From a virus, in the IMG/VR virus record IMGVR_UViG_3300009502_000036, positions 1-64,000 of that record: a DNA stretch of 64,000 nt; one strand, written 5' to 3'. Of the stretch, positions 9,725 to 25,640 are shown piece by piece. The stretch's first letter is position 1. Each line of letters starts with the position of its first letter. The notes below the pieces were generated by a model that saw only the letters and a program-made list of their open reading frames with translations, searched no databases and was not told where the DNA came from. The translations under genes and the position numbers were made by a program.

Positions 9725-9745
9725 TATATTATACTAGTTGAATAA
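9725..9745 (+). promoter_or_regulatory. putative early promoter (TATATTATACTAGTTGAAYAA family)
   Basis: Near-identical 21-mers at 9725, 12840 and 24608, each intergenic ahead of a gene run. Confidence 0.7.
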
Positions 9746-11527: not shown

Positions 11528-11751
11528 ATGAACGAGACATCATTATTTCTTATATACAAGGGTTGGATAGATCCGCTTGAAAATAGAAATGCATCAGGTT
11601 ATAAACCTTGGAGAATTGCAAAAATGAAGAAGATGCAAAATCATTTTGTGACTATGCTGGTCATTGGACAGAAATTGATTGTTGGCAAATAGCATATGAA
11701 CCCAATCATGTCATGGCAAAGTATAAATACGAAAAAATAGATACGTTATGA
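11528..11751 (+). pseudogene. hypothetical protein frameshifted at an A5 run
   Basis: MNETSLFLIYKGWIDPLENRNASGYKPWRIAK; adding one A at 11620-11624 gives NEEDAKSFCD...YEKIDTL*, ending in an ATGA overlap with 11748. Confidence 0.55.
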
Positions 11752-12266
11752 ATAATGTAGACAAAAAAATACTAACATTAGAAGATTTTTGTAGTACCCA
11801 TCCTGATAGTCTTTACCGTAATAACAAAAATATTACTTCTAATATTATGAGAAATCAATCTGTATACGTACATAACAGTAATACTGCGCCAGCAGTTTCT
11901 GCAGCCGATATTAAAATACTACGTAGTGTTAATAAGGGCACTCCGGCTTTAGTTGCTGAATGTTATAATGAAATACAAAAGATTTCAAAAATTCATACGA
12001 CAAAAGATTTAACGTTTACTGAAAATGAACACATGTCGTTTGATCATTTATCAAAATCAGTTTGGGGTAGTAATTTACCCAATAAAATAGTTGAAAAATT
12101 TCGTCAAGATAAAGAATTGTCTATATATATGGAGTCTCTTAAAGATTTTAACGTTGTAATTTCAGATCTTTCTAGATTTAATCTTTATATTTCTGCTTTT
12201 ACAAGAGAAGCATGGTATATTTTTATTCCTTCATCATTAATAGAATGTAATTATGAAAATCGTTAA
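11748..12266 (+). CDS. KGT-TTKDL-W paralogue family member 1
   Basis: VNKGTPALV...IHTTKDLTF...FTREAWYIFIP. Confidence 0.7.
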   Translation: MNNVDKKILTLEDFCSTHPDSLYRNNKNITSNIMRNQSVYVHNSNTAPAVSAADIKILRSVNKGTPALVAECYNEIQKISKIHTTKDLTFTENEHMSFDHLSKSVWGSNLPNKIVEKFRQDKELSIYMESLKDFNVVISDLSRFNLYISAFTREAWYIFIPSSLIECNYENR

Positions 12267-12759
12267 AGGAAATTTAATAAAATTGGCACTAGAAGGGAAT
12301 TTTGATGTTATAGCACATGGCTGTAATTGTTTTTGTGCTCAAAAAAGTGGAATTGCTTCTGCAATGGTTGCAACCTTTAGTACTAATGATCCGCTAAAAT
12401 ATTCTTTGGAACATTCTAGTAGAAAAGGTGATATCTCAAAATTGGGAAAAATTCAATCTTATACATTTAAACTTCCTCATTTTCTTGATTTGCTTAATAC
12501 AGCAATAACACCAACTACAGACAGGAAAGAATTTTCTGTTGTTAATTGTTATACTCAGTATAGAGCTGGAACGGACAAAATGCATCTCGATTATAATGCT
12601 TTGCGTGTTTGTATGAAAAGTATAAACGACAACTTTAAGGGAAAAGAAATCGGATTACCAAAGATTGGATGTGGTCTTGCTGGAGGAGATTGGAATGAAG
12701 TAAAAGATATCATAGAAGAAGAAATGCGGGACGTTTCTATTACTATTGTAGAACTATGA
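12253..12759 (+). CDS. macro domain protein (ADP-ribose hydrolase-like)
   Basis: KGNLI, IAHGCNC...SGIA, NCYTQY, LPKIGCGLAGGDW. Confidence 0.9.
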   Translation: MKIVKGNLIKLALEGNFDVIAHGCNCFCAQKSGIASAMVATFSTNDPLKYSLEHSSRKGDISKLGKIQSYTFKLPHFLDLLNTAITPTTDRKEFSVVNCYTQYRAGTDKMHLDYNALRVCMKSINDNFKGKEIGLPKIGCGLAGGDWNEVKDIIEEEMRDVSITIVEL

Positions 12760-12839
12760 TAAAATATTTTTTGTACAGTATATTTTCTGATCTTACTATT
12801 TTTAACGTTAAAATAGTTTTTAATTAGTAGAAAAAATGT

Positions 12840-12860
12840 TATATTATACTAGTTGAATAA
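12840..12860 (+). promoter_or_regulatory. putative early promoter
   Basis: TATATTATACTAGTTGAATAA, 21 nt before ATG 12882. Confidence 0.7.
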
Positions 12861-12881
12861 TTAAACAAAACAAAATACATT

Positions 12882-13157
12882 ATGAATATTGATCAGATTA
12901 CTTCTGCAATTCTATCGGGTAATTTTACAAACGAAGAACTAACATCAATTTTCAATGCCGTAAAACTTGAAAAATCTATTATTGCTGAAAAGAATAAAAG
13001 AATTTTTTCACATGGATCTAGAGTAAAGTTTACAAATTCTAGAACTAATGGTGTTATCGAAGGTGTAATAATGAGAATTTCTAAGAAAACTGTAACTATT
13101 CATACAAATCTTGGAACAAATTGGAGAGTTCCAGCAAACATGCTTTCAGTAGCATAA
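12882..13157 (+). CDS. conserved small phage protein (SH3/KOW-like C-terminus)
   Basis: GSRVKF...GVI...KKTVTI...WRVPANML. Confidence 0.65.
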   Translation: MNIDQITSAILSGNFTNEELTSIFNAVKLEKSIIAEKNKRIFSHGSRVKFTNSRTNGVIEGVIMRISKKTVTIHTNLGTNWRVPANMLSVA

Positions 13158-14057
13158 AATAAAAAATTATGAGCTTAGAAAAAGATACTTTGATTTTAGA
13201 TACATATCAGATTTATAATAAAATTTGTGATGATTTTCACTCTATTACTTCTACAGTAAATGAATTTGATGGGGTTGTTTTAACAGAAGACCAGATTATT
13301 GAATGTGGTAAACGATTTGTAGAAGAATTTGGTGATGAATATCAGGAATTTTCACAAGAATATTATAGTAAATTTGGTTCTGAGTGGCTTGTTTTTTTAA
13401 ACAAAGCCACAAAATGTGGAATGTCTAATTCTCTAGCTAAAATTTTAGCTAGTTAATATAATTGTAATATGTATTATCAAGAAAGATTGCCAAGGAAATT
13501 AAAATTAAGAAAGATTGGTAGAATACGATCTAAGGCAAGTTTACGAAGATTAAATAATGATGTTATAATAAATTGTGATAAAGGTGATAAGCTTTATTTG
13601 CATGGAAAAGAAATAAATTATTGTCCATATTGTGGTTGTGAAAATAGTACATTAGTCGATTATCATGCAGAATATCCTGAACAGTGGTGGGATCTAGTGT
13701 GCAATAGATGTAATAGACCTGTAATTTCAGTTGATAATTCGTTTCCTATTCACGCGTTATCTATTATAAGAGAATGTTGATGGATTAAATCTAAAAAGCA
13801 AATTTAAATATTATATCATGACACAGAAGTACGCCAAATCACAGTTGGAACAGTTAGTAAATCTAGCTAAAGAATCAACAAAGAATTCTCTTACAGCAGA
13901 AGAAAAGACTAATCTTTTAAAGAAAATAAAAGAAATAGAAGATTCTGTTATAGAATTAGTAGAATTTCAGGAAGACAGAATTTTGAGTTTGACTGCAGAG
14001 ATTGATACAATTCTTTATGCAGGCGAAGAGTAATATTAGTATTTAATGTTTACACAA

Positions 14058-14104
14058 ATAGACAGATCGTAGAAAATAATTTTGTCATTTTACGATCTGT
14101 CTAT
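14058..14104. terminator. long stem-loop / probable terminator
   Basis: 14-bp perfect inverted repeat ATAGACAGATCGTA / TACGATCTGTCTAT followed by ATTTT. Confidence 0.65.
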
Positions 14105-15032
14105 ATTTTCAATAACAGAGTTAAAAAAAGAATCAAAGGCATATATGATTCTTACAATTAACATATTTTGTAAATATGAATAGTTTTCTTATTGTAGTAG
14201 AAATTTTTCTTGCTGTCTTATTAATAAAAAGAGTATATAGAGATGTTAAAAACTTTCTTATATATTTACAAAAAGAAATTCGAGAGAAAGGAGTAATGAC
14301 TCTAGGACAGAACGGGAAGAAAATATGGACATTAAAGAAATGGTTTTTAATTTTTAAATTTTTCGAAAAATGAAGATTTCTAGAGTATTTTTGATCATTT
14401 TGGCTTTGATTTTGCAGGTCGTGTCTGTAAAGTATAATATCGTATTGTGGTCTCTATTTTATCCTCTTAGTATGTTATCAGGATTTATTATGGGATTTGT
14501 TGTATTTGATGATATGTTTGAAATAATTATTAAAAATAAAATAAAATAAAATATGCCTACAGAACTAGAAACAAAAGTAGAATTTCTACTACAAGAATAT
14601 AGACTTGCTGGTGAAGCATTATTTGATGTAAATATTGCTGGAACTCCAGAATTAGAAGAAATGTCCGATGAATTGGTAGATTCTATCCGAAGTGCATTTG
14701 CAACTGGATATTCATTTGGAGCACTATCTGTTCTTCAGACAACCTTTAAAGGAATAGCAGAAAAAGAACCAGAAACGTTAATACAACCAGTAAAATCAAA
14801 CATTATAATAGGAAAGTTTTAATGAAATTTCTTACTGATTCATTGTATAGAATTGATTTTCCTGAAGAAGATAATAAAACGGACTTCTTTTTCAAACACC
14901 GGAAAATTTTTAAGGGAAGATTCAGGCAGTCTTTAATGTATGGAATTCTTGGTAAAATGACTCTTGCATTTTATGTTGCCATATTATTTCCTGGTATTTT
15001 TTTAAAGAAATATAAAAAGAAAGACTTTTAAA

Positions 15033-15275
15033 TTGTGTATTATGAAAACTAATTCAGTTAAAGTTGAAGAATGGGAAATAATGGCTAGGTCTATTTCTAG
15101 AAGGGTTTTACGAGTATTAGACTTAAAAAATATTTCTAAAGAATCTTTAAGCGAAAAACTTGATATTTCAAAAGAAAGAGTTGAAGATATTCTTAATAGT
15201 AAAGAAGATCTTACACTTAAAATGATAGCAAAAATCGCAGATGCACTGAATGTGCGTCTTTTCGATATAATGTAA
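15033..15275 (+). CDS. XRE-family helix-turn-helix protein
   Basis: ISKESLSEKLDISKERVEDILN...DLTLKMIAKIADAL. Confidence 0.75.
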   Translation: MCIMKTNSVKVEEWEIMARSISRRVLRVLDLKNISKESLSEKLDISKERVEDILNSKEDLTLKMIAKIADALNVRLFDIM

Positions 15276-15284
15276 AGGATAATT

Positions 15285-15935
15285 ATGTTAGTATATCAAG
15301 CACCATATCGAGATTGGATAGGTCCATATCAAATAGCAGAAGCACTTTGTTTTTGGGTTCCCAAAACAAAGGATGAACTCGGCAATGAAGAATTTCCTGA
15401 ATGGGTAGATAATTTTGGTGAATGGTTGTCAGAAACACCACTTTTACCCCTTTGTAATTGGATTGAAGAAAATATTAAAAGAATTGTTCATGTTCATATT
15501 GATAAATATGATACGTGGAATATGGATTCAACTTTAACGCCAATTATTCTTCCGCTATTAAAACAATTAAAGGAATCTCAGCATGGAGCTCCACATGTTG
15601 ATGATTGTGATGTTCCGGATAATCTAAAATCATCTGCCGCACCAGAAAAACAGAATGACTGGGATATAGATGATCTTCATTTTGCACGTTGGGATTGGGT
15701 TCTTAACGAAATGATTTGGGCATTTAATGAACTTAATGGTGATTGGGAAAATCAATTTCATACTGGTAATATAGATTTTCAGTTTGAAAAAGATCCTGAA
15801 ACTGGACATAATCTTTTAATACATGGGCCGAATCATACTGGAAAATTCGACAGTGACGGTTACACAACTCACCTAAATAGAATTAAAAGAGGTACTACAT
15901 TATTTGGTAAATATTTTCAAAATCTTTGGGATTGA
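15285..15935 (+). CDS. conserved T4-like hypothetical protein
   Basis: WIGPYQIAE, IDKYDTWNMDSTL, RWDWVLNEMIWAF, LFGKYFQNLWD. Confidence 0.8.
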   Translation: MLVYQAPYRDWIGPYQIAEALCFWVPKTKDELGNEEFPEWVDNFGEWLSETPLLPLCNWIEENIKRIVHVHIDKYDTWNMDSTLTPIILPLLKQLKESQHGAPHVDDCDVPDNLKSSAAPEKQNDWDIDDLHFARWDWVLNEMIWAFNELNGDWENQFHTGNIDFQFEKDPETGHNLLIHGPNHTGKFDSDGYTTHLNRIKRGTTLFGKYFQNLWD

Positions 15936-16012
15936 AATAGCAATTTTAGAGGCAATTATTGTAGAAGATCCTGTTGCATCCAGTGACATAGAAAATGTAA
16001 TTAAAAAATAAT

Positions 16013-16041
16013 AAAAAGCTATTCTTTGAATAGCTTTTTTT
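16013..16041 (+). terminator. rho-independent terminator
   Basis: AAAAAGCTATTC-TTT-GAATAGCTTTTTTT. Confidence 0.75.
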
Positions 16042-16075
16042 GTTTATATTAAATTAATAAACAAAAAAAACAAAT

Positions 16076-16738
16076 ATGAAAAATATACATAAAGTGGTAG
16101 TAGGATCAAGACTTCATGGTCTAGATAATCAAGATTCCGATTACGATTATAGAGGTGTTTTTAAAGTAGATTTAATTGATATTTTATCACCATTTAGAAA
16201 AACACAAAACACTTCTTGGATAGAAGGCAAGACTGATGACACTAATTACGAGTTAATAAATTTTGTCAAAATGTGTGCAACGGGTAATCCTTCTGCACTA
16301 GAGGTTATCTGGTCTAACAGAATAGTAGAAACTACCGATATTGGTATGGAACTAGTTACAAATAGACAAAAATTTTTAGACGATGAAAAGATATATTTTG
16401 CTCATCTTGGATATGCAGAAAATCAAATAAAGAAAATGGATCTTTATAATCCAGATCCAAAAAGAACACCAAAGACTATCATTGCCTATATTAGATCGTT
16501 AAGACAGGGAATAGAATTATTGGATAGTGGAGATTTTAATCCAGTTTATGAATATCCGGACAGAGATTTTCTTTTAGAAATAAAAAATAATTTCAATTCT
16601 TCTTTAATACCGAAAGTTACTACTTTAATGCACAAAGTAAGACAGGAACTAGAGTGCTTAAAAGCTTTTCGTGGATTTATTCGTAAAGCGGATATTGAAT
16701 GGATAGAAAATTTTATTTTAAATGCTTATTCAAAGTAA
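16076..16738 (+). CDS. predicted nucleotidyltransferase (Pol-beta superfamily, YcgL/NrdC.11-like)
   Basis: GSRLHGL...SDYDYRGVF, GNPSALE. Confidence 0.85.
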   Translation: MKNIHKVVVGSRLHGLDNQDSDYDYRGVFKVDLIDILSPFRKTQNTSWIEGKTDDTNYELINFVKMCATGNPSALEVIWSNRIVETTDIGMELVTNRQKFLDDEKIYFAHLGYAENQIKKMDLYNPDPKRTPKTIIAYIRSLRQGIELLDSGDFNPVYEYPDRDFLLEIKNNFNSSLIPKVTTLMHKVRQELECLKAFRGFIRKADIEWIENFILNAYSK

Positions 16739-16917
16739 TATTATGGCAGATAAACATTATAAAAGATTAGATGAGGAACATATCGATGCAATAGACTCTG
16801 CTATTTTCAATGGTGACATTTTCTTCAATATCGAAAATATTATTGAATTTCGTTATATTATGGCACGTTGGGAAAAAGAACTACATGTCTGGGAAGAAAG
16901 AATAAAGGAATGCGAAA

Positions 16918-17343
16918 ATGATAATTTATAACATTAACGAGGACATTTTCTCTAAATGTGAAGACCTTTATAATAAAGAAGCTCTTACATTTAACCCGAT
17001 GATAAAAACTGTATCGGAAATACTAAGAAAAGTTTCAATTGGTTGCCCAGCTTTGGTTGTGAAAGATAGTTTACATTCGAAATCAAAAGCTATAAAAATA
17101 CATACAACAAAACATCTAACATTTAATATGGCTGATAGTGTAGATATTTTTTTTACTATAAAAAATAAAGATATTATGGAATGGGTATACAATAATTTTC
17201 ATTCCGATAAAGAATTGTCACAGTATATTATAACTTTAAATCCAGAAAAGATTCTTGATGATTTATCGCTATATGTAAGTTGTTTTTATAAAGATGAATG
17301 GTATATTCTAGTCCCAAGTGTTTTAGTTAGAATTTATTACTAA
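16918..17343 (+). CDS. KGT-TTKDL-W paralogue family member 2
   Basis: IGCPALV...IHTTKHLTF...FYKDEWYILVP; clearly similar to 11748 (both contain DKELSxY). Confidence 0.7.
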   Translation: MIIYNINEDIFSKCEDLYNKEALTFNPMIKTVSEILRKVSIGCPALVVKDSLHSKSKAIKIHTTKHLTFNMADSVDIFFTIKNKDIMEWVYNNFHSDKELSQYIITLNPEKILDDLSLYVSCFYKDEWYILVPSVLVRIYY

Positions 17344-18013
17344 CATTTCTTATTTTATTTCATGAAAAAGAAATAATTGAAAAGTTAACAAATACTAAAA
17401 TAACTCTTCAGATAGAATGTACTGATTTTAGAATAAAAAAGCTTAAAGAATTAAGATTTATAATGAAATGATTGAAGAACAAATAAAAGATAGAAAATAT
17501 AAATTTCCCAATCACGATTATGTAGCAGATTGGAATATGAGGAAAAGGCTGACGGAACTTTCAAAAAATCAATTTGTATATGCTTATGAGCATGAAAATA
17601 TGTTAGATTATATTAAAAATATTTCGAATGTTTATGTTCTAGGAGCATATTGATTTCGAGATTTAAATTGTGATTAACTTTTAAGTGTTTCTGCAAAATT
17701 ATTTAAATAATTCTACAATGAAAATGAAATATAAACTTGGCTATAAAGGAATGTGGGGAAGTGATGTTTATTTTTTAGAGGGTTTTCCATCTTCTATAGA
17801 TAAAATTTACGCTATTTATATAAATGACACGAGAGTTTCCGTGATAAATGGCAAAGTAGGCCATGTAGAAGATTCTGATTGTGTTCCTACATATTCTAAT
17901 CATTTTTATATTCAGATAGATGTCTTTGGCGTACTTATCGACATTGATATAAACAAAATTGTTAATGAAATTGATGTTTATGTTAAAACAGAAGATGTTT
18001 CATTTTTAGCCAC

Positions 18014-18325
18014 ATGACATACATAGTGAAAAAGGGTACACCCGGAGTAGCATATAATATAATTGAAAGCACTATAGTTATACTTAAAACTACTAAAGAT
18101 TTAACTTTTAACCGTAGATCGGATAGTGATGTTAATGATCATTATTTAGGAGATGTTGGTGGAGAAAGATTGTGGAATGTTATCTTGGACTGTTATCACT
18201 CAGATATGTCTCTTATTAAATCAACAAATTTTGAAAATATAAAAGTACGGGATCTTAATGTATTTGAAGAAGATTTTTGGTTGTTGTTTGTCCATCGAGA
18301 TTTAGTGACTTTTACCACAAAATAA
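18014..18325 (+). CDS. KGT-TTKDL-W paralogue family member 3
   Basis: VKKGTPGVAY...KTTKDLTF...FEEDFWLLFV. Confidence 0.7.
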   Translation: MTYIVKKGTPGVAYNIIESTIVILKTTKDLTFNRRSDSDVNDHYLGDVGGERLWNVILDCYHSDMSLIKSTNFENIKVRDLNVFEEDFWLLFVHRDLVTFTTK

Positions 18326-18566
18326 TTTTTTATAATCAATAGAATAATTTGTATATTATATTACGTGAATAAATTATAGATGGAGAGTATAGCATGATTG
18401 AAGTTTATCAAAAAATAAAAGACATTTTATATAATGCAGTAGAACAGTCAGAGTCAGAATATTATGGGTTTTCTGGTATTCCTGAAGATTCTCTTTATGA
18501 TACTCTTAAACAAATTATGGAAGTTGTTAATTCTTATAGAGATAACGAAACATCAAAAAATAATTT

Positions 18567-18848
18567 ATGAATAACTTTTTCATACCAAAAGGAACCTTTG
18601 GTATTGCATATGATACATCGGAAGGGAATTTTGTTGTATTAAGTACGAGTAAAGATTTAAATTTCCTAGAAAGGAGTGATTCTAAAGTAACGAGATTAGG
18701 TGATCTTTGGTGGGATGTTCTACAAATATTTAGAGGTAATTTCATTACTGGCATGGATAATCAAATTTCAGTAACTGATATATTTGCCTTTGAAAAAGAC
18801 GAATGGTTCTTATTTATACACCAAACTAAAATTAAATACGAAGAATGA
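18567..18848 (+). CDS. KGT-TTKDL-W paralogue family member 4
   Basis: IPKGTFGIAY...STSKDLNF...FEKDEWFLFI. Confidence 0.7.
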   Translation: MNNFFIPKGTFGIAYDTSEGNFVVLSTSKDLNFLERSDSKVTRLGDLWWDVLQIFRGNFITGMDNQISVTDIFAFEKDEWFLFIHQTKIKYEE

Positions 18849-19102
18849 CTTTTTATTTTACCAGGTTCTCCTATATTAGCTTATAGTATTATAGATCAGC
18901 GTCTAACTTATACTAAGACTTCTAAACTTTGGCAGTTTGATAAAACATCAGAGGGGAATTTTCCAGGCAACTTCCCGATTTAATGCTTGATGTTCATGAC
19001 TATTTTAAAAGAATAGATTCTAATTATATTAATATAGAATACATATATACTTTTGGTATTAAAGATTGGCTTTTGTTTATTAATAAAAGAGAACTCAAAT
19101 GA
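18845..19102 (+). pseudogene. frameshifted paralogue family member 5
   Basis: Fragments ILPGSPILAY...KTSKLWQF and ...FGIKDWLLFINKRELK* lie in different frames; ATGA overlaps at both ends. Confidence 0.6.
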
Positions 19103-19342
19103 AACTTTTTGTTATAGAAAAAGGAATTGAAGTACTAGCTTATAAAATAAAATCAGATTTGGTGTATTCTATAACTACGAGTAAAATAAGTTTTTTTTTG
19201 TAAAAAATCGGAGAATTCTATATCAGAAGAATTGCTTCTTATAGCAGAAGGAGTATGCGGACAGGTATTCGCTGATATTTTAGTTTTTGAAAAGGATGGA
19301 TGGTTATTGTTTGCAGATAAAGAAGAAGTTCAATATTTTTAA
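19099..19342 (+). pseudogene. frameshifted paralogue family member 6
   Basis: MKLFVIEKGIEVLAY...TTSKISFF; removing one T from T9 (19191-19199) gives ...VFEKDGWLLFADKEEVQYF*. Confidence 0.7.
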
Positions 19343-19598
19343 TTTACAGCAAAAAGTTTATATTATACTATATGAATAATTTATAAACAGAAAATACATC
19401 ATGCAAAGAGAAAACAATGATACAATTTGGGGAGCGTTCGCGCTTTACATAACAAATCAGGAACTAGTGATTACAAAAACAGACATATTGCAACTGTTTA
19501 AATCTAATCCGGACGTCATTAAAAATGAAATTAGAGAAAATTCAGAAGAGTCTCTACTTTTTCCTAAAACTTATGTAATGTGCATAAACTAAATTATA

Positions 19599-20618
19599 AT
19601 GAAAATTGACATTAAAGAATTAGACAGACTACATAAAGAGAAACTTTTAGAAAAGCAAGTTCATCCTATTCTTCCTTTGACTATTTGGAATTATAGTCAG
19701 ACTTGTCAGTATGATAATTTGTGGACATCTACTCTTTTGATGTGTCGTGGACTCGTAACAGACGTAGAAGGAAACGTAATTGCTCGTCCATTTAAAAAAT
19801 TCTTTAATTTAGAAGAAAAGAAACATGTACATACGGAAAATTTTACGATTTGGCACAAAGAAGATGGTTCCTTGGGTATTATATTCTTCTACAATGGGGT
19901 ATGGCACATCTGCTCTCGTGGGTCTTTTACTTCTGATCAAGCTATCAAAGCAAAGGAGATGCTTGAAAAAATCAAAGACAAAGAGAAGTATCTTAAAAAA
20001 GAACTCACTTACCTGGTAGAAATTATTTATCCAGAAAACAGAATTTGCATAGATTATGGACAAACAGAAAAACTTATTTTACTAGGCGCTGTAGATATAG
20101 AAACTGGCGCAGAAGTTAATCCTACAAAAATTTCTCAATGTATTTTTGAAATACCACAGCAGGAATATTTCACTGACTATTCTCAGATTGCATGGCTAGA
20201 CTGGGAAAATAAAGAAGGTTTTGTTGTTCATTTTGACAACGGTAATAAATGCAAGATTAAATTTGCTAATTATTTAAAAAAGCATAAAATAATATGGAAT
20301 CTCACAAACAAATTGATTCACGAACATCTTGTTAACGGTAACATCGAAGAATTGTTGGATCAAATACCAGATGAATTTTATTCTATCGTCAAAGAAGAAA
20401 TTTATGAATTTAATAAAGAATATGCTATCATATTAAGTTCAGCGATGGTTGCTTTTAATGATGCACGAAAGTTAGAAACACGTAAAGAATTTGCTGCGGA
20501 AGCACTTAAATATGAATATCCTCAGGTTCTTTTTGCTATGCTTGATAAAAAGAACTATGAAGGTGTTATTTGGAAAATACTTGAGCCCAAAGTTTCAATA
20601 CGTATATTAACGAAATAA
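19599..20618 (+). CDS. rnlA: RNA ligase 1 (T4 RnlA-like)
   Basis: CRGLV, ARPFKKFFN, motif I KEDGS, SRGSFTS, EIIYPENRI, EGFVV, KIK. Confidence 0.9.
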   Translation: MKIDIKELDRLHKEKLLEKQVHPILPLTIWNYSQTCQYDNLWTSTLLMCRGLVTDVEGNVIARPFKKFFNLEEKKHVHTENFTIWHKEDGSLGIIFFYNGVWHICSRGSFTSDQAIKAKEMLEKIKDKEKYLKKELTYLVEIIYPENRICIDYGQTEKLILLGAVDIETGAEVNPTKISQCIFEIPQQEYFTDYSQIAWLDWENKEGFVVHFDNGNKCKIKFANYLKKHKIIWNLTNKLIHEHLVNGNIEELLDQIPDEFYSIVKEEIYEFNKEYAIILSSAMVAFNDARKLETRKEFAAEALKYEYPQVLFAMLDKKNYEGVIWKILEPKVSIRILTK

Positions 20619-20625
20619 GGTTAAA

Positions 20626-20919
20626 ATGGGATATAGTGTATACAAAGGTACTCGTGGAATAGCATACGACGTTAGAAATGAAATTTTTGTTAAAATACAA
20701 ACGAAAAAAGATCATCACTTTCATCATTCTAATTTTGGAATCGAATTTGATGAAATTGTTAGTTGTATGATACGTGAAGTATTTGATAAAAATTATGTGA
20801 AACTTGAACTCTATTTTCCTGAATACGAAACTGGAAGAGGTTCTATTATACCGTTTAAAAGATCAGATTGGTATTTAATGGTATCTAATTTTAATGTAAT
20901 ATCTTATGTTGGTAAATAA
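20626..20919 (+). CDS. KGT-TTKDL-W paralogue family member 7
   Basis: VYKGTRGIAY...QTKKDHHF...FKRSDWYLMV. Confidence 0.7.
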   Translation: MGYSVYKGTRGIAYDVRNEIFVKIQTKKDHHFHHSNFGIEFDEIVSCMIREVFDKNYVKLELYFPEYETGRGSIIPFKRSDWYLMVSNFNVISYVGK

Positions 20920-21205
20920 CGCGACTACCTTTAAAGTTAATAAAGGTGTTTCTGTAATAGTTTTGCAAGAAATAGGTTTAAATGCTATTAATGGCACTAT
21001 ATTATCAACTGAGTTTAAAAAAATTCGTACGACTAAGGATTTGATTTTTTTCCCAACAGAAAGAATAGGAAAATCTTCTTGGATAAATTTAGTTCAATCC
21101 TTTAGAGATTCGCTCATAAAAACTGATAAATCATTATATCACTGTTTTCGTAGAGACGGTTGGTTTATTTTTATCAATAAATCAGATATCTTAGAAATAG
21201 TTTAA
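20906..21205 (+). CDS. KGT-TTKDL-W paralogue family member 8
   Basis: VNKGVSVIV...RTTKDLIF...FRRDGWFIFI. Confidence 0.7.
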   Translation: MLVNNATTFKVNKGVSVIVLQEIGLNAINGTILSTEFKKIRTTKDLIFFPTERIGKSSWINLVQSFRDSLIKTDKSLYHCFRRDGWFIFINKSDILEIV

Positions 21206-21221
21206 GCGAAGGAGTTTTTCC

Positions 21222-21509
21222 ATGTTAAAGGTTTGTAAAGGAACTGAATGCGTTGTAATAAATAAATCTTTCTGTTCGGAAAAATATATTATTGATGGAA
21301 TAATAAATGAAAAATTATTTAAATTTATACGAACAACTAAAAATTTAGAATTTAGTGGAGAAGAAGAAAAGCTTTACGACGATTTTCCTATTCTTTTTGA
21401 CAGTTTTGATGAGTTGTTTTATGACTTTGGCACTCCGGATATATATAATTGTTTTGAAAGAGAAGGTTGGTTTGTATTTTTTGAGAATTTTCCTGTTACA
21501 TATTGTTAA
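21222..21509 (+). CDS. KGT-TTKDL-W paralogue family member 9
   Basis: VCKGTECVV...RTTKNLEF...FEREGWFVFF. Confidence 0.7.
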   Translation: MLKVCKGTECVVINKSFCSEKYIIDGIINEKLFKFIRTTKNLEFSGEEEKLYDDFPILFDSFDELFYDFGTPDIYNCFEREGWFVFFENFPVTYC

Positions 21510-21570
21510 ATTATTATTATATTATATCATAGGTCTATAAGTGAAAGTAGTTAAATCTAAATAAATTGAA

Positions 21571-23421
21571 ATGAACATCCCTTTCCACTCTGTCAAACAA
21601 TTAGAATCACAAATAGTAGTGGCTAGTACAGCATATTATGAAGGCATTGCTATTATGACAGATGAAGAGTTTGACTGCATGATAAAAGCTCTAAAAGATT
21701 GTAATCCTAATTCTTCAATTCTCAAGACCGGTTGGGGATATGTACCTAAAGATAGAATAGTTGAACATATTGGCAGTGAGGTTGGATCACTAGATAAAAT
21801 CCAGATAGCTAACTATATAGATAGAAAAACCGTTATAGCTACTCCTAAATACGATGGACTTACTGCAGTAGTATATTTTGAAGATGGTAAATATGCTAAA
21901 GGTGTAACTAGAGGTGATGGTAAATTAGGACAGGATATTTCCTCTAAATTGAAGTGGATAATTGAGAATACTACTGAGGCTAATCTTGATGATATAGTAT
22001 TTGATGGTACATCAATAAGAGGTGAGGTAGTTGTACCATTGGTATATGAGTCTGATGTATTATCCTTAGGATATTCAAATACAAGAAACTTTGCTGCAGG
22101 AGTTATGAATACTAAGGAGGATGACTATGAGTTACTTCGTTATCTTCACTTTGTTCCATATACTATCAGAGATAGTAAGTTATCCAAATGGCAATGTTAC
22201 GAATTTTTTTATGAAAAAAATCTTATAACTCCATGTCAAGTAGGATTAATTGAGAATATATTAGACTCGGAAAGCCTAAGGTTAGTATATAATAAATGGA
22301 GAGAGATATATCCAATAGATGGAATTGTATTAACAAAAGAATTTTCTGAGGATATTGACAACGACTCATATGCAGTAAAGTTTGAGACAGAAGAAAAGCC
22401 CGCCGTAGTTGATACTGTTGAGTGGAGTACGCGATCAACAGGAGCTGTGATACCTGTGGTTATATTAAAGGAGCCTATCAAGATTCATGGAGCTAATATC
22501 CAGAGGCTTAGTGGATATAATTGGAAATATATCACTGATAATAAAATTGGACATGATGCGGAGATCATTATTACCAGAGCAAATGAAGTAATACCTAAAA
22601 TACTTAACGTCACTAAACCATCCAGTACGGTAGTTTGGCCACATGAGTGTCCTGTATGTGGAAGTCCAACATCAGTACAGAGTGTTCATCTTATATGTGA
22701 AAATCCACTATGCCCATCTGTACAGATTAATCAAGTACATGCATTTTTAACTAGATGTGATATTGATAAGGGTATCGGTCAGACTACATGGGATAAATAC
22801 TTTGAACATTTTAGTGTAGGTAATTTCTTTGATTTTGTAAATAGTGTAAGAAACTATGATGGTAATATACAGCACTTGGAATTTCTTGGAGATAGTATGT
22901 CTAAGAAGGTTGCCCAGGCTATTACAGTTATTGGGAATAAAATCAAGAATATTACTTATGAGGATATACTAGTATCAATGAACATTCCAGGTCTTGGAAC
23001 TACACATGCTAAGACTCTTGGTCAATACACTTTCCAAGAATTAAAGGATAAGAGTATAAGTGAGAATAATAATCTTGGAACTAATGTAACAGTTGGAAGA
23101 GAGATATCGAACAAAATAGATGATCTAATAATGTTAGTAGATATTCTCTGGCCCACTAATCCCCCTACTATTACAGTGCCTATTAATATTACGGGAATAG
23201 AGGTATGTATTACTGGTAAGCTGGAGTATGGTACTAGAGATAAATTTGCAAAAGCAATAGAGTCATATGGATTTATATCTGTTGATGGAGTGAATAAGAA
23301 TACCAAATATCTAATCTGCAATTCCACTTCTTCATCCAGTAAATCTAAAACTGCTAGTAAATTAGGAGTACCAGTGATATCTGAACAAGCATTTTTAGAT
23401 CACTTTAATATTGTACTATGA
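21571..23421 (+). CDS. ligA: NAD-dependent DNA ligase
   Basis: Domain Ia AYYEG...MTDEEFD, KYDG, TRGDG..G.DI, RGEV, RNFAAG, DGIV, AVKF, CPVC zinc finger, C-terminal BRCT (CITGKL...KLGVPVISE). Confidence 0.92.
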   Translation: MNIPFHSVKQLESQIVVASTAYYEGIAIMTDEEFDCMIKALKDCNPNSSILKTGWGYVPKDRIVEHIGSEVGSLDKIQIANYIDRKTVIATPKYDGLTAVVYFEDGKYAKGVTRGDGKLGQDISSKLKWIIENTTEANLDDIVFDGTSIRGEVVVPLVYESDVLSLGYSNTRNFAAGVMNTKEDDYELLRYLHFVPYTIRDSKLSKWQCYEFFYEKNLITPCQVGLIENILDSESLRLVYNKWREIYPIDGIVLTKEFSEDIDNDSYAVKFETEEKPAVVDTVEWSTRSTGAVIPVVILKEPIKIHGANIQRLSGYNWKYITDNKIGHDAEIIITRANEVIPKILNVTKPSSTVVWPHECPVCGSPTSVQSVHLICENPLCPSVQINQVHAFLTRCDIDKGIGQTTWDKYFEHFSVGNFFDFVNSVRNYDGNIQHLEFLGDSMSKKVAQAITVIGNKIKNITYEDILVSMNIPGLGTTHAKTLGQYTFQELKDKSISENNNLGTNVTVGREISNKIDDLIMLVDILWPTNPPTITVPINITGIEVCITGKLEYGTRDKFAKAIESYGFISVDGVNKNTKYLICNSTSSSSKSKTASKLGVPVISEQAFLDHFNIVL

Positions 23422-23552
23422 GGAGCTTCTTTCTTGAAATAAGTATCAAAAAATATTTTGTGTTTAGTGGAAAATGATTATATTATAAAGTCGAGTAATT
23501 TAAAAGAAACTTCTTTTCTATTGCTTCATCTTAATAAATTTTAGTTTATAAT

Positions 23553-23891
23553 ATGCAACACATTAAAGAGGGAACATTTGGTATTGCTTATTGTTATATT
23601 GTAAATCATGTTCACTATGACAAATACGTAAAATTAAATACTTCTATGGATTTATATTTTAATAAAAATGTAACCAAAATAGGAAAGTCTATTTGGGCTC
23701 ACGTTTTTGGTTTATATAAGAGTGATTACATACTACAGAATGTTATAAAAGAAATGTTAGCAAAAATACATCCGCAACCTATAGAGGATTTTATTACTGT
23801 TATTGATAAAGATGGATGGTTATTTTTTTTCCAACAAAAGAAATTATATCAGAAAAAGATATTTTTGAGTTTTAAATTACCGTTTGATTAA
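23553..23891 (+). CDS. KGT-TTKDL-W paralogue family member 10
   Basis: IKEGTFGIAY...NTSMDLYF...IDKDGWLFFF. Confidence 0.7.
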   Translation: MQHIKEGTFGIAYCYIVNHVHYDKYVKLNTSMDLYFNKNVTKIGKSIWAHVFGLYKSDYILQNVIKEMLAKIHPQPIEDFITVIDKDGWLFFFQQKKLYQKKIFLSFKLPFD

Positions 23892-23895
23892 AGAA

Positions 23896-24263
23896 ATGTC
23901 ATATACTATTTTTAAAATACTATCGCGATTGTTTTAAGAATAAAACCCGAAGACTGTTATTTTTGTGTTGGTACTAAAAAATATACACGAAGATTTCACG
24001 ATACCAACACAAAAATAACATTTATACATACAACAAAGGAACTAATATTTGAGGAGATGATGAATGCAGATGAGCTTAAACATTTATATTATCGTATTAA
24101 ACACGCGGTTTTACCGAAATCTTCAGAATACGTAAACTCATTTCATGAAAAACAATGGAGTTTTTTTAACAAATTAGATGAAACTGGCAATTGGATGCTT
24201 ATAGTTCCTTCTAATAAAGTCTTTAAAGATTTTTTAAACAAACCATATGCCAGTAGTTTATAA
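23896..24263 (+). pseudogene. frameshifted paralogue family member 11
   Basis: MSYTIFK; adding one A at 23914-23917 gives NTIAIVL...IHTTKELIF, in frame with ORF 24057 (...GNWMLIVPS). Confidence 0.65.
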
Positions 24264-24570
24264 AAACACACCAGCAATTGTGGTTCACAAACCACACATA
24301 GATTCAAATTTGTCTATAGAAAGTATTGAATATTGGATAGATGCTAAAATAATAAGCATGTTCACAACAAGGGATATTCATTTTAAAGAACAGGTTTTTT
24401 ATTTACCATTTTATATACGCAATAAGATATGTTATAAAATAGACAGTTCCATCAATATTTCCTACGCATTTCGAAACAAGGGAAAGACTTTTTTTAAACG
24501 TGAAGATGAAAACGGAATTTGGTTTCTTGTTGTTCCTTCAGATTATCAGTTATTGATGAGAATTGAGTAA
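24247..24570 (+). CDS. KGT-TTKDL-W paralogue family member 12
   Basis: VYKNTPAIVV...FTTRDIHF...ENGIWFLVVPS. Confidence 0.65.
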   Translation: MPVVYKNTPAIVVHKPHIDSNLSIESIEYWIDAKIISMFTTRDIHFKEQVFYLPFYIRNKICYKIDSSINISYAFRNKGKTFFKREDENGIWFLVVPSDYQLLMRIE

Positions 24571-24607
24571 AAAGTTGTGAAAAATTTTTTATTTAAGTAA
24601 AAATGGT

Positions 24608-24628
24608 TATATTATACTAGTTGAACAA
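24608..24628 (+). promoter_or_regulatory. putative early promoter
   Basis: TATATTATACTAGTTGAACAA; followed by AGGAG before ATG 24651. Confidence 0.7.
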
Positions 24629-24650
24629 TTAAACAAAACTAGGAGATTAT

Positions 24651-25640
24651 ATGAGAGGACGTACTGCAAAAGCCGCAATTTTAGCAGCAGAAAAATACAC
24701 AGAAGTTGGTGCTGCTAAAAGGGAAGTGAAGGTGCAAGCTCCAATTGTTCCAAAGAAAAGAATTAAAGGTCAGAAAGTAGTGATGGATGCAGAATATTTT
24801 GCACGTCTTGATCTAGAAGTTGAAGCACAACAGGAAGCTAGGAGAACTCGTACTGTAGTTGTTCCTAAGGAAGAAGATCCTAAAATAAAATTATCAAAAC
24901 AAATTACAAGTCTTCTTGGAGAACTCGACGAATTTGTAGACGAGGCTTTCGAAAAGAAAAATACTCCCAAATTCAATATCATCGCGTGGTTAAAAGAAAA
25001 AAACTTTGTAGACGATGAACACATTGAAGCTATTAAAAAGACGTATAGCAAACACCGCGCTGAACTTCAGGAAGCATATGATAAAGTATGCCCTCAGATG
25101 GTGGAAGGTTATTCCTTCCTCAATCCTACTCAAAAGAAAAAGATTTTAGATTTCTTTGATACTATTCTTAACGGATGCGATGATTTTCTTAACTTGCGTA
25201 GAAGGAAGAAAAGTATTGATAGAAAACCTCATTTTGCAAAGCCGTTAAGTGTTCAGAAGCAGGTGAAAACTCTAAAATATATGAAGGAAGCACCAGAATT
25301 TGGTGTTATTTCTATATCTCCGCAAGATATTGTTGGAGCAAAAACACTTTGGCTATTTAACACTGCATACAAACAACTTAGTTATTACCAAGCAACTGAT
25401 TATACAGGATTTAAAGTGAAAGGTTGTTCTCTTCTTAATTGGGATACAAAATCATCGAAAAGAAAATCTCTTAGGAAACCATTAGAAACTCTTAAAGCTG
25501 TTATGGGTGCAAATGGTAAAGAAATTCAGGATATTATGGACAAACTGACTACTAAAAGTGCAAGTGTTAATGGACGAATTAATGATAAGGTAATTATCCT
25601 TAAGGTTGGAAAAGAACTTATAAAAGGTCAACAGGTTTAA
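24651..25640 (+). CDS. conserved T4-like hypothetical protein
   Basis: QMVEGYS, KQVKTLKY, IVGAKTLWLFNT, KSLRKP, NGRIN. Confidence 0.8.
   Translation: MRGRTAKAAILAAEKYTEVGAAKREVKVQAPIVPKKRIKGQKVVMDAEYFARLDLEVEAQQEARRTRTVVVPKEEDPKIKLSKQITSLLGELDEFVDEAFEKKNTPKFNIIAWLKEKNFVDDEHIEAIKKTYSKHRAELQEAYDKVCPQMVEGYSFLNPTQKKKILDFFDTILNGCDDFLNLRRRKKSIDRKPHFAKPLSVQKQVKTLKYMKEAPEFGVISISPQDIVGAKTLWLFNTAYKQLSYYQATDYTGFKVKGCSLLNWDTKSSKRKSLRKPLETLKAVMGANGKEIQDIMDKLTTKSASVNGRINDKVIILKVGKELIKGQQV

Follow-up and report, generated by a model that had tools for sequence, protein, structure and literature searches.

An undescribed family of predicted small-barrel proteins encoded by twelve gene copies in a freshwater T4-like phage

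INTRODUCTION

In T4-type phages, adaptive accessory genes are found in hyperplastic regions, between conserved promoter elements (PeSLs) (Comeau, Arbiol and Krisch 2014, PMC4122927). The T4 internal-protein locus, a hypervariable set of small accessory proteins, has been discussed together with the shuffling of such promoter repeats (PMC4122927). Here we describe a protein family that is encoded by 12 copies in about 13 kb, all on the + strand, of IMG/VR virus record IMGVR_UViG_3300009502_000036, and we compare its locus with these and other described systems. The window, by which we mean the whole stretch of DNA that was analysed (64,000 nucleotides), is the first 64 kb of this 78,091-bp record, which is of the linear class and has a CheckV completeness of 38%. 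The G+C content of the window is about 30%. Because the window encodes gp32, a gp5 OB domain, gp6 and a baseplate wedge protein, and because its gp32 is 50-62% identical to that of cyanomyophages, the record is, by its gene content, a fragment of a T4-like myovirus. The phage is a freshwater one, and near letter-for-letter matches to the stretch were present in freshwater and lake-water metagenome runs from four studies. A megablast search of the phage collection with the part from 11 to 25 kb gave no match.

The locus resembles the hyperplastic regions in that small, variable, non-core genes on one strand lie between core genes and are cut into units by a repeat, and in that genes have been gained, lost or replaced between close strains. 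Like a PeSL, the repeat holds a promoter-like box, together with a ribosome site and a start codon, its promoter activity being predicted only. There are two clear differences. The genes described here are homologous to each other over their full length, whereas most genes of hyperplastic regions are unrelated ORFans, and a targeting peptide of 10 residues is all that the T4 internal proteins have in common. The repeat is also not a classical PeSL, because it has no upstream stem-loop.

Outside the T4-like phages, the Bcl-2-like proteins of poxviruses and the multigene families (MGF) of African swine fever virus are clustered paralogues of one fold that lie in variable regions and are thought to serve host interaction. 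The family described here is like them in having one (predicted) fold with divergent surfaces, a place in a variable region, gain and loss of copies, and inactivation by frameshifts between strains. It is unlike them in that those are eukaryotic viruses whose proteins have unrelated folds and experimentally shown targets, whereas here the host is bacterial and any targets are hypothetical. The phage anti-defence clusters (the anti-CRISPR [Acr] loci and T4 Arn, IPI* and Dmd) also consist of small proteins from accessory regions and often lie beside other counter-defence functions; the region described here encodes an RNA ligase, an RNA-repair nucleotidyltransferase and a macro-domain protein. 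Our family resembles none of these anti-defence proteins in sequence or in fold. We know of no protein of the Acr, Arn, IPI* or Dmd type that occurs as a 12-copy paralogous set in one phage.

RESULTS

Nine of the 12 family copies are intact open reading frames (ORFs) of 93-172 amino acids (aa), and three are broken. All 12 starts had been listed in a sequence-only reading of this DNA that preceded our analysis. Three-frame reading and a hidden Markov model (HMM) of the family showed that all of them are real, the three broken copies being frameshifted, and in the six-frame translation of the whole 78-kb record the HMM found exactly these 12 places and none besides. Pairwise identity among the window copies is only 25-40%. 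The family is statistically solid because of the leave-one-out scores, compared to those of shuffled sequences, and the independent recovery of clusters from outside the window. In leave-one-out HMMs, eight intact copies scored 30.8-54.4 bits and the ninth, m24247, scored 11.7 bits. The best scores in the shuffle control, with 500 shuffles per sequence, were 7.6-11.8 bits, and the best shuffle of m24247 itself reached 9.6 bits. When a profile of the nine copies was searched against 1.84 billion protein representatives, it recovered 13 outside clusters with E values from 3e-13 to 3e-4.

Three shared sequence blocks, also noticed in the sequence-only reading, are borne out by alignments over 22 sequences from the window and from outside. 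They have the motifs xKGTxG, TTKDLxF and FxRDGW; the W alone is invariant, and T, F and F are conserved in at least 90% of the sequences. Blocks 1 and 2 are separated by 20-38 residues and blocks 2 and 3 by 32-60 residues. The same reading held that these spacers are free in length and sequence. Both regions do vary, but the long forms keep a common F..D.EL..Y..PL stretch in the middle region. In seven of the nine intact copies, the protein opens with strand 1 of the predicted fold, 4-11 residues before the KGT block. The N termini of m11748 and the outside sequences P0015, P0016, P0019 and P0021 share a P-x-L-x-D/E-F-C/T stretch that is followed by low-complexity sequence with low predicted order; it may serve these long forms as a peptide for docking, the stretch being short and close to the N terminus.

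We modelled the short-form copy m18014 with AlphaFold2 (AF2) on the 22-sequence alignment and obtained a mean predicted local distance difference test score (pLDDT) of 89.9 and a predicted template modelling score (pTM) of 0.82. In this model, strands at residues 2-5, 10-15, 20-25 and 30-32 are followed by helices at 37-63 and then by strands at 81-86, 89-94 and 98-101. The AF2 model of the 172-aa m11748 yields the same core in residues 55-172, behind an N-terminal extension of about 55 aa with low confidence. The predicted fold is a small seven-stranded barrel in which a helical insert stands between strands 1-4 and strands 5-7. The three motifs sit in the strands and their turns, and the variable parts map to the strand 2-3 hairpin region and to the helical insert. 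A fixed small beta scaffold with variable inserts had been proposed from the letters alone; the fixed core and two variable regions agree with the models, but the insert is predicted to be helical and the protein not to be all-beta.

Structure searches gave no firm relative. Foldseek against the PDB found nothing at E <= 0.001 with either model. A VIA-align search of 48,161 chains, in which unrelated folds typically reach Z scores of 7-8, gave only rows below 5. The top row for the better model was the PH-like domain II of herpesvirus gB (Z 4.8), SH3b rows followed at Z 4.1-4.7 over 58-65 residues with root mean square deviations of 2.7-3.5 (9ovi_B, Z 4.7 with the first model; 3h41_A, Z 4.1-4.7, about 61-65 residues at a deviation of about 3), and other weak rows were C-terminal domains of integrases and KOW domains. 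In BFVD, two uncharacterised phage proteins, A0A9E8MCE3 and A0A6J7X5Z5, were found with a probability of 0.97-0.98, a TM score of about 0.5 and E values of 0.03-0.07, and the ESM Atlas, with scores up to 0.86, gave no lead. The fold is probably an SH3-like small barrel with a helical insert, its class being unsettled because the top row for the better model is the PH-like gB domain and not an SH3b domain. The predicted core resembles SH3-like and SH3b barrels in that it is a small antiparallel barrel and in that the best rows include SH3b. It differs from them in that a helical insert of 30-60 residues splits the barrel, no sequence match exists and Z stays below 5.

The sequence-only reading did not recognise the family, and this agrees with our searches, which matched it to no known family or housekeeping domain in Pfam, PHROG, PADLOC or the PDB sequences. 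In scans of 22 members against the first three, no family was matched by two or more of them, and strong matches were confined to the BRCT part of P0022; the best hit of the profile among PDB sequences had an E value of 0.077, which we judged to be chance. A tblastn search of 50,697 GenBank phage records with P0010 and m18014 gave no match even at E 1. We also inspected 80 IMG/VR loci (990 kb) around homologues of the 216-aa gene at 15285-15935; the homologous products are 45-54% identical, and none of these loci holds a family member. The 7.9-kb metagenome contig L002, where the homologue is 63% identical, carries one long-form copy, one short-form copy and a probable third, divergent copy (L002:64-348), for which a word-indexed search returned no relatives. 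In the stretch 534-3126 of L002, the long-form copy follows a methyltransferase gene and two family-2 glycosyltransferase genes that are missing from the matching part of the window.

A comparison of copy number among relatives, proposed in the sequence-only reading, showed that other contigs carry two or three copies each. P0009 and P0016 occur together on a 220,918-bp contig, P0015, P0021 and P0025 on a 93,702-bp contig, P0017, P0018 and P0039 on a 22,712-bp contig, and P0012 and P0013 on an 11,217-bp contig. Because outside members also sit two or three to a contig, the multi-copy state is, judged from these contigs, a trait of a narrow group of freshwater T4-like phages. By the sequence searches above, this is an undescribed protein family that is confined to that group. 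In a maximum-likelihood tree, the nine intact window copies interleave with the outside ones, with seven label changes, the same as for shuffled labels; terminal branches have 1-3 changes per site, and m16918 groups with the outside sequences P0010 and P0023 with a support of 95/86. From this interleaving and the long branches, the tree indicates that the paralogues are old, fast-evolving and maintained and that there was no recent burst in this genome. The sequence-only reading had described an expansion of about 12-fold amid RNA and DNA ligases. Its count and setting are right, but the tree and the other contigs show that the expansion is neither specific to this phage nor recent.

In one outside lineage, represented by P0022 and P0030-P0035 (seven sequences from several ENA/Logan contigs), the proteins are fusions of the family domain with a genuine BRCT domain. 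That of P0022 matches PF00533 over residues 138-207 with 48.8 bits (cut-off, 21.3 bits; E 8e-13) and is 32% identical to the BRCT domain of the LigA-type ligase encoded in the window. None of the window's copies has such a fusion. A search of IMG/VR with P0022 returned nothing beyond a match to its BRCT part, from a record that lacks the family, and longer fused forms (458-2000 aa) did not turn up, which is weak evidence.

Along the window, the first copy is the long form m11748 (11748-12266; 172 aa; HMM E 1.4e-41; leave-one-out, 54.4 bits), the 3' end of which overlaps the start of a macro-domain gene (12253) by 14 nt. It is followed by a second long form, m16918 (16918-17343; 141 aa; HMM E 2.7e-35), and by m18014 (18014-18325; 103 aa), which is joined to the upstream ORF at 17685-18017 by an ATGA overlap. 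The copy m18567 (18567-18848; 93 aa; HMM E 3.8e-22) is 39% identical to m18014. Next to it lies pseudoA (18845-19102), a decayed copy that the HMM matches in two pieces (18849-18980 and 18944-19099); three-frame reading indicates at least two frameshifts, its ATG is not in frame with the body, and its motifs are degenerate, with PGS in place of KGT and KTSKLW in place of TTKDL. The copy pseudoB (19099-19342) is broken by one frameshift at a T9 run (19191-19199) and, when read with T8, yields an 80-aa protein with an end-to-end profile match (26 bits, profile positions 38-139). The next three copies are m20626 (20626-20919; 97 aa; leave-one-out, 30.8 bits), 7 nt 3' of the RNA ligase gene, m20906 (20906-21205; 99 aa), whose neighbour in the tree is the outside cluster P0017, and m21222 (21222-21509; 95 aa), an acidic protein with an isoelectric point (pI) of 4.4 that is encoded directly upstream of the DNA ligase gene. 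The last three are m23553 (23553-23891; 112 aa), whose C-terminal tail is set by a T8 run at 23823-23830, pseudoC (23896-24263), which is broken in this strain by an A4 run at 23914-23917, and m24247 (24247-24570; 107 aa; HMM E 1.3e-14), the most divergent copy. Over the family, the pI spreads from 4.4 to 9.7, and several members are acidic.

Two of these copies differ between strains in the length of a homopolymer run. In contigs of X9, a lake run from 2020, the run at 23914 is A5, the result of an insertion behind 23913 (depth 114), and pseudoC is an intact 122-aa member; the read-through matches profile positions 37-138. The T8/T9 change at 23823-23830 alters the last 20 or so residues of m23553. 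The T8 allele (112 aa, P0003) was found on 49 contigs and the T9 allele (107 aa, P0049) on 72, and the T9 tail fits the family consensus better, beginning with the proline that is the consensus at that position. All four combinations of tail allele and linked substitutions exist, P0050 and P0051 being the mixed haplotypes. For pseudoA and pseudoB, no indels were seen in four runs from three studies, in contigs, which hide rare variants; pseudoB has T9 in all four runs compared. In X9, single-nucleotide polymorphisms (SNPs) and small indels are strongly clustered at 23052-23924 (the 3' end of ligA, the intergenic part, m23553 and the start of pseudoC) compared to the rest of the 12.9 kb, as would be expected if this patch had been acquired from a diverged strain by recombination. 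In run X2, we noted three "skips" with sides of only 21-25 nt.

The copies are tightly packed, with overlaps of 4-17 nt to their neighbours. Among the neighbouring genes are those for a radical SAM enzyme, a macro-domain protein, an RlaP-type nucleotidyltransferase, an Rnl1-type RNA ligase and a LigA-type NAD-dependent DNA ligase, the last of these with m21222 and m23553 on either side; an XRE-type regulator and a weak match to a Lar-like zinc ribbon are also nearby. The genes for the macro-domain protein (12253-12759), the RlaP nucleotidyltransferase (16076-16738) and the Rnl1-type RNA ligase (19599-20618) lie together and may form a set for RNA repair or the handling of ADP-ribose. Between the 216-aa gene and the RlaP gene, a perfect 12-bp stem with flanking T and A runs (16013-16039) looks like a bidirectional terminator.

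A promoter-like repeat of 68 nt on the + strand (repeat family D1) splits the family region into three units. The copy at 12817-12884 ends in a start codon and opens the unit 12882-18325, a diverged copy at 18329-18396 (66% identical to the reference copy) opens the unit 18394-19342, and the copy at 19336-19403 opens the unit 19401-24570, which holds the RNA ligase gene, the DNA ligase gene and six family copies. A further copy at 24585-24652 closes the family region and opens the next unit. The core of the repeat, TATATTATACTAGTTGAA, has four exact occurrences against none expected, the core standing alone at 9725. The repeat, of which there are 4-5 copies, ends in ATG and contains a box that reads TATACT or TATATT; in copy 3, this box is preceded by ATTTAC at a distance of 16 nt. 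Folding of 81 nt at five copies gave z values from -1.7 to +1.2 and no common hairpin upstream of the repeat, and terminator-like sites were not found next to the repeat copies. Some 41 nt are nearly identical at 12831-12871 and 24599-24639 and flank an 11.8-kb segment with 11 of the 12 copies and both ligase genes. The assembly graphs of four runs branch at the 24585-24652 repeat. These direct repeats could delete or move the whole segment; its joined (deleted) form was not seen. From 12.8 to 24.6 kb, the coding strand is free of TATAAATA, a motif like that of T4 late promoters. The sole + strand occurrence of this motif near the family, at 11722-11729, lies 19 nt before the start of m11748, and the motif counts in the window equal chance.

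DISCUSSION

The reading that we favour, with a probability of about 0.4, is that the family consists of dispensable, non-late accessory proteins with a common barrel frame, each with its own insert and surface that binds a different partner in host takeover or counter-defence. The proteins would be made before the late genes, and the partners would most likely be host proteins. The set would be kept diverse because host strains differ, and copies would consequently be gained, lost, or switched on or off individually. The spread in pI, the variable inserts, the narrow distribution, the decay of copies together with their on-off alleles, and the setting in a hyperplastic region are consistent with this reading. 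Dispensability and turnover are supported by the three broken copies and by the A4/A5 and T8/T9 differences between strains. The spread in pI also argues against one shared ligand such as DNA. We dropped a reading of the proteins as DNA mimics, as their pI is not uniformly acidic, and likewise the idea that the N-terminal L-x-x-F stretch might bind the clamp. An anti-defence role, which had been suggested in the sequence-only reading, is plausible and a reasonable guess from the genomic setting.

Several observations weigh against the favoured reading. PADLOC, Foldseek, VIA-align and BFVD gave no homology or convincing fold match to a known anti-defence or takeover protein, and in this analysis no link of any copy to a defence system was found. 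There is no RNA run among the listed runs that contain the stretch, the "early" timing rests on sequence motifs only, and a generic sigma-70 promoter scan performed no better than on shuffled sequences. The strain SNPs in family genes, six nonsynonymous and four synonymous, do not suffice to test for selection. The polar residues that are conserved (K, T, T, K, D, R and D) lie in turns and possibly form a single shared site, which would point to a common ligand.

Such a common site also fits the main rival of the favoured reading, which we consider unlikely. According to this alternative, the family assists in DNA or RNA metabolism and consists of specialised adaptors in repair or replication whose barrel binds nucleic acid or docks on the ligases or the replisome. 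Small SH3-like barrels often bind nucleic acids, and C-terminal domains of integrases and KOW domains are among the weak structural rows. The copies flank both ligase genes, with m20626 directly behind the RNA ligase and m21222 and m23553 around LigA, and the P0022 lineage fuses the domain to a true BRCT domain related to that of LigA. On the other hand, the pI range with its several acidic members is unlike that of a uniform nucleic-acid binder, and almost all T4-like phages with the same ligases and neighbouring genes lack the family. In addition, the L002 copies adjoin glycosyltransferase genes and ORFans and not ligases, and the phage persists in several lakes even though three of its copies are broken.

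A bolder possibility is that the family is a phage repertoire of binders on one barrel whose members are phase-varied by homopolymer slippage, at the A4/A5 run at 23914, the T8/T9 run at 23823 and the T9 run at 19191. We regard this as improbable. If it were true, a lytic phage population would have a phase-variable set for host interaction or counter-defence that is matched to the different host strains in a lake.

It is decidedly improbable that the copies assemble together as mixed rings or dimers, in the manner of Sm-like proteins, and act as one complex. Sm-like and other small barrels often oligomerise, several old paralogues lie side by side in more than one phage, and the genes are closely coupled by stop codons that overlap start codons. 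However, the number and composition of the copies differ between phages, three copies are broken here, and a fixed stoichiometry would hardly allow for a copy that is on in one strain and off in another.

We think it very improbable that the proteins travel in the virion and are ejected with the DNA, as the T4 internal proteins are, to stop host nucleases at entry into the cell. Among T4-type phages, the internal-protein locus of T4 is the classic case of small accessory proteins in a hypervariable set (PMC4122927), and the long forms have in common a short N-terminal L-x-(D/E)-F stretch. By inspection, however, this stretch does not consistently fit an (L/I)-x-E cleavage site, and the seven intact copies that start at strand 1 have no N-terminal targeting peptide. 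The coding strand of the region also lacks TATAAATA apart from the occurrence at 11722, the frequency of the motif being no higher than chance. Least probable of all are duplicates that were spread by recombination between repeats and now decay slowly with little present function: a quarter of the copies are broken, the promoter-like repeats could mediate duplication and loss, and frameshift alleles are frequent in the population, but purifying selection on the fold is required because the motifs and the predicted core are kept across such long branches and in different phages, and nine copies have stayed open although random frames are soon closed in a genome so rich in A and T.

The protein family is new, and the phenomenon to which it belongs, that of variable hyperplastic accessory genes, is already known. 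The variable regions of T4-like phages consist mostly of single ORFans, which offer no handle for study. Here, one phage has 12 copies of a confidently modelled frame, its relatives have several, and on-off alleles exist in nature, and this makes the family a tractable case of accessory genes. If the copies bind different host targets, nature would have provided a collection of small binders that share a frame, and the family would be a marker of the matching of phages and hosts in lakes. If, as the BRCT fusion hints, the copies dock on ligases or the ends of DNA, they would represent a new class of accessory factor for repair or replication. Either way, the family merits a profile in the public libraries, as none of those scanned had one that matched.

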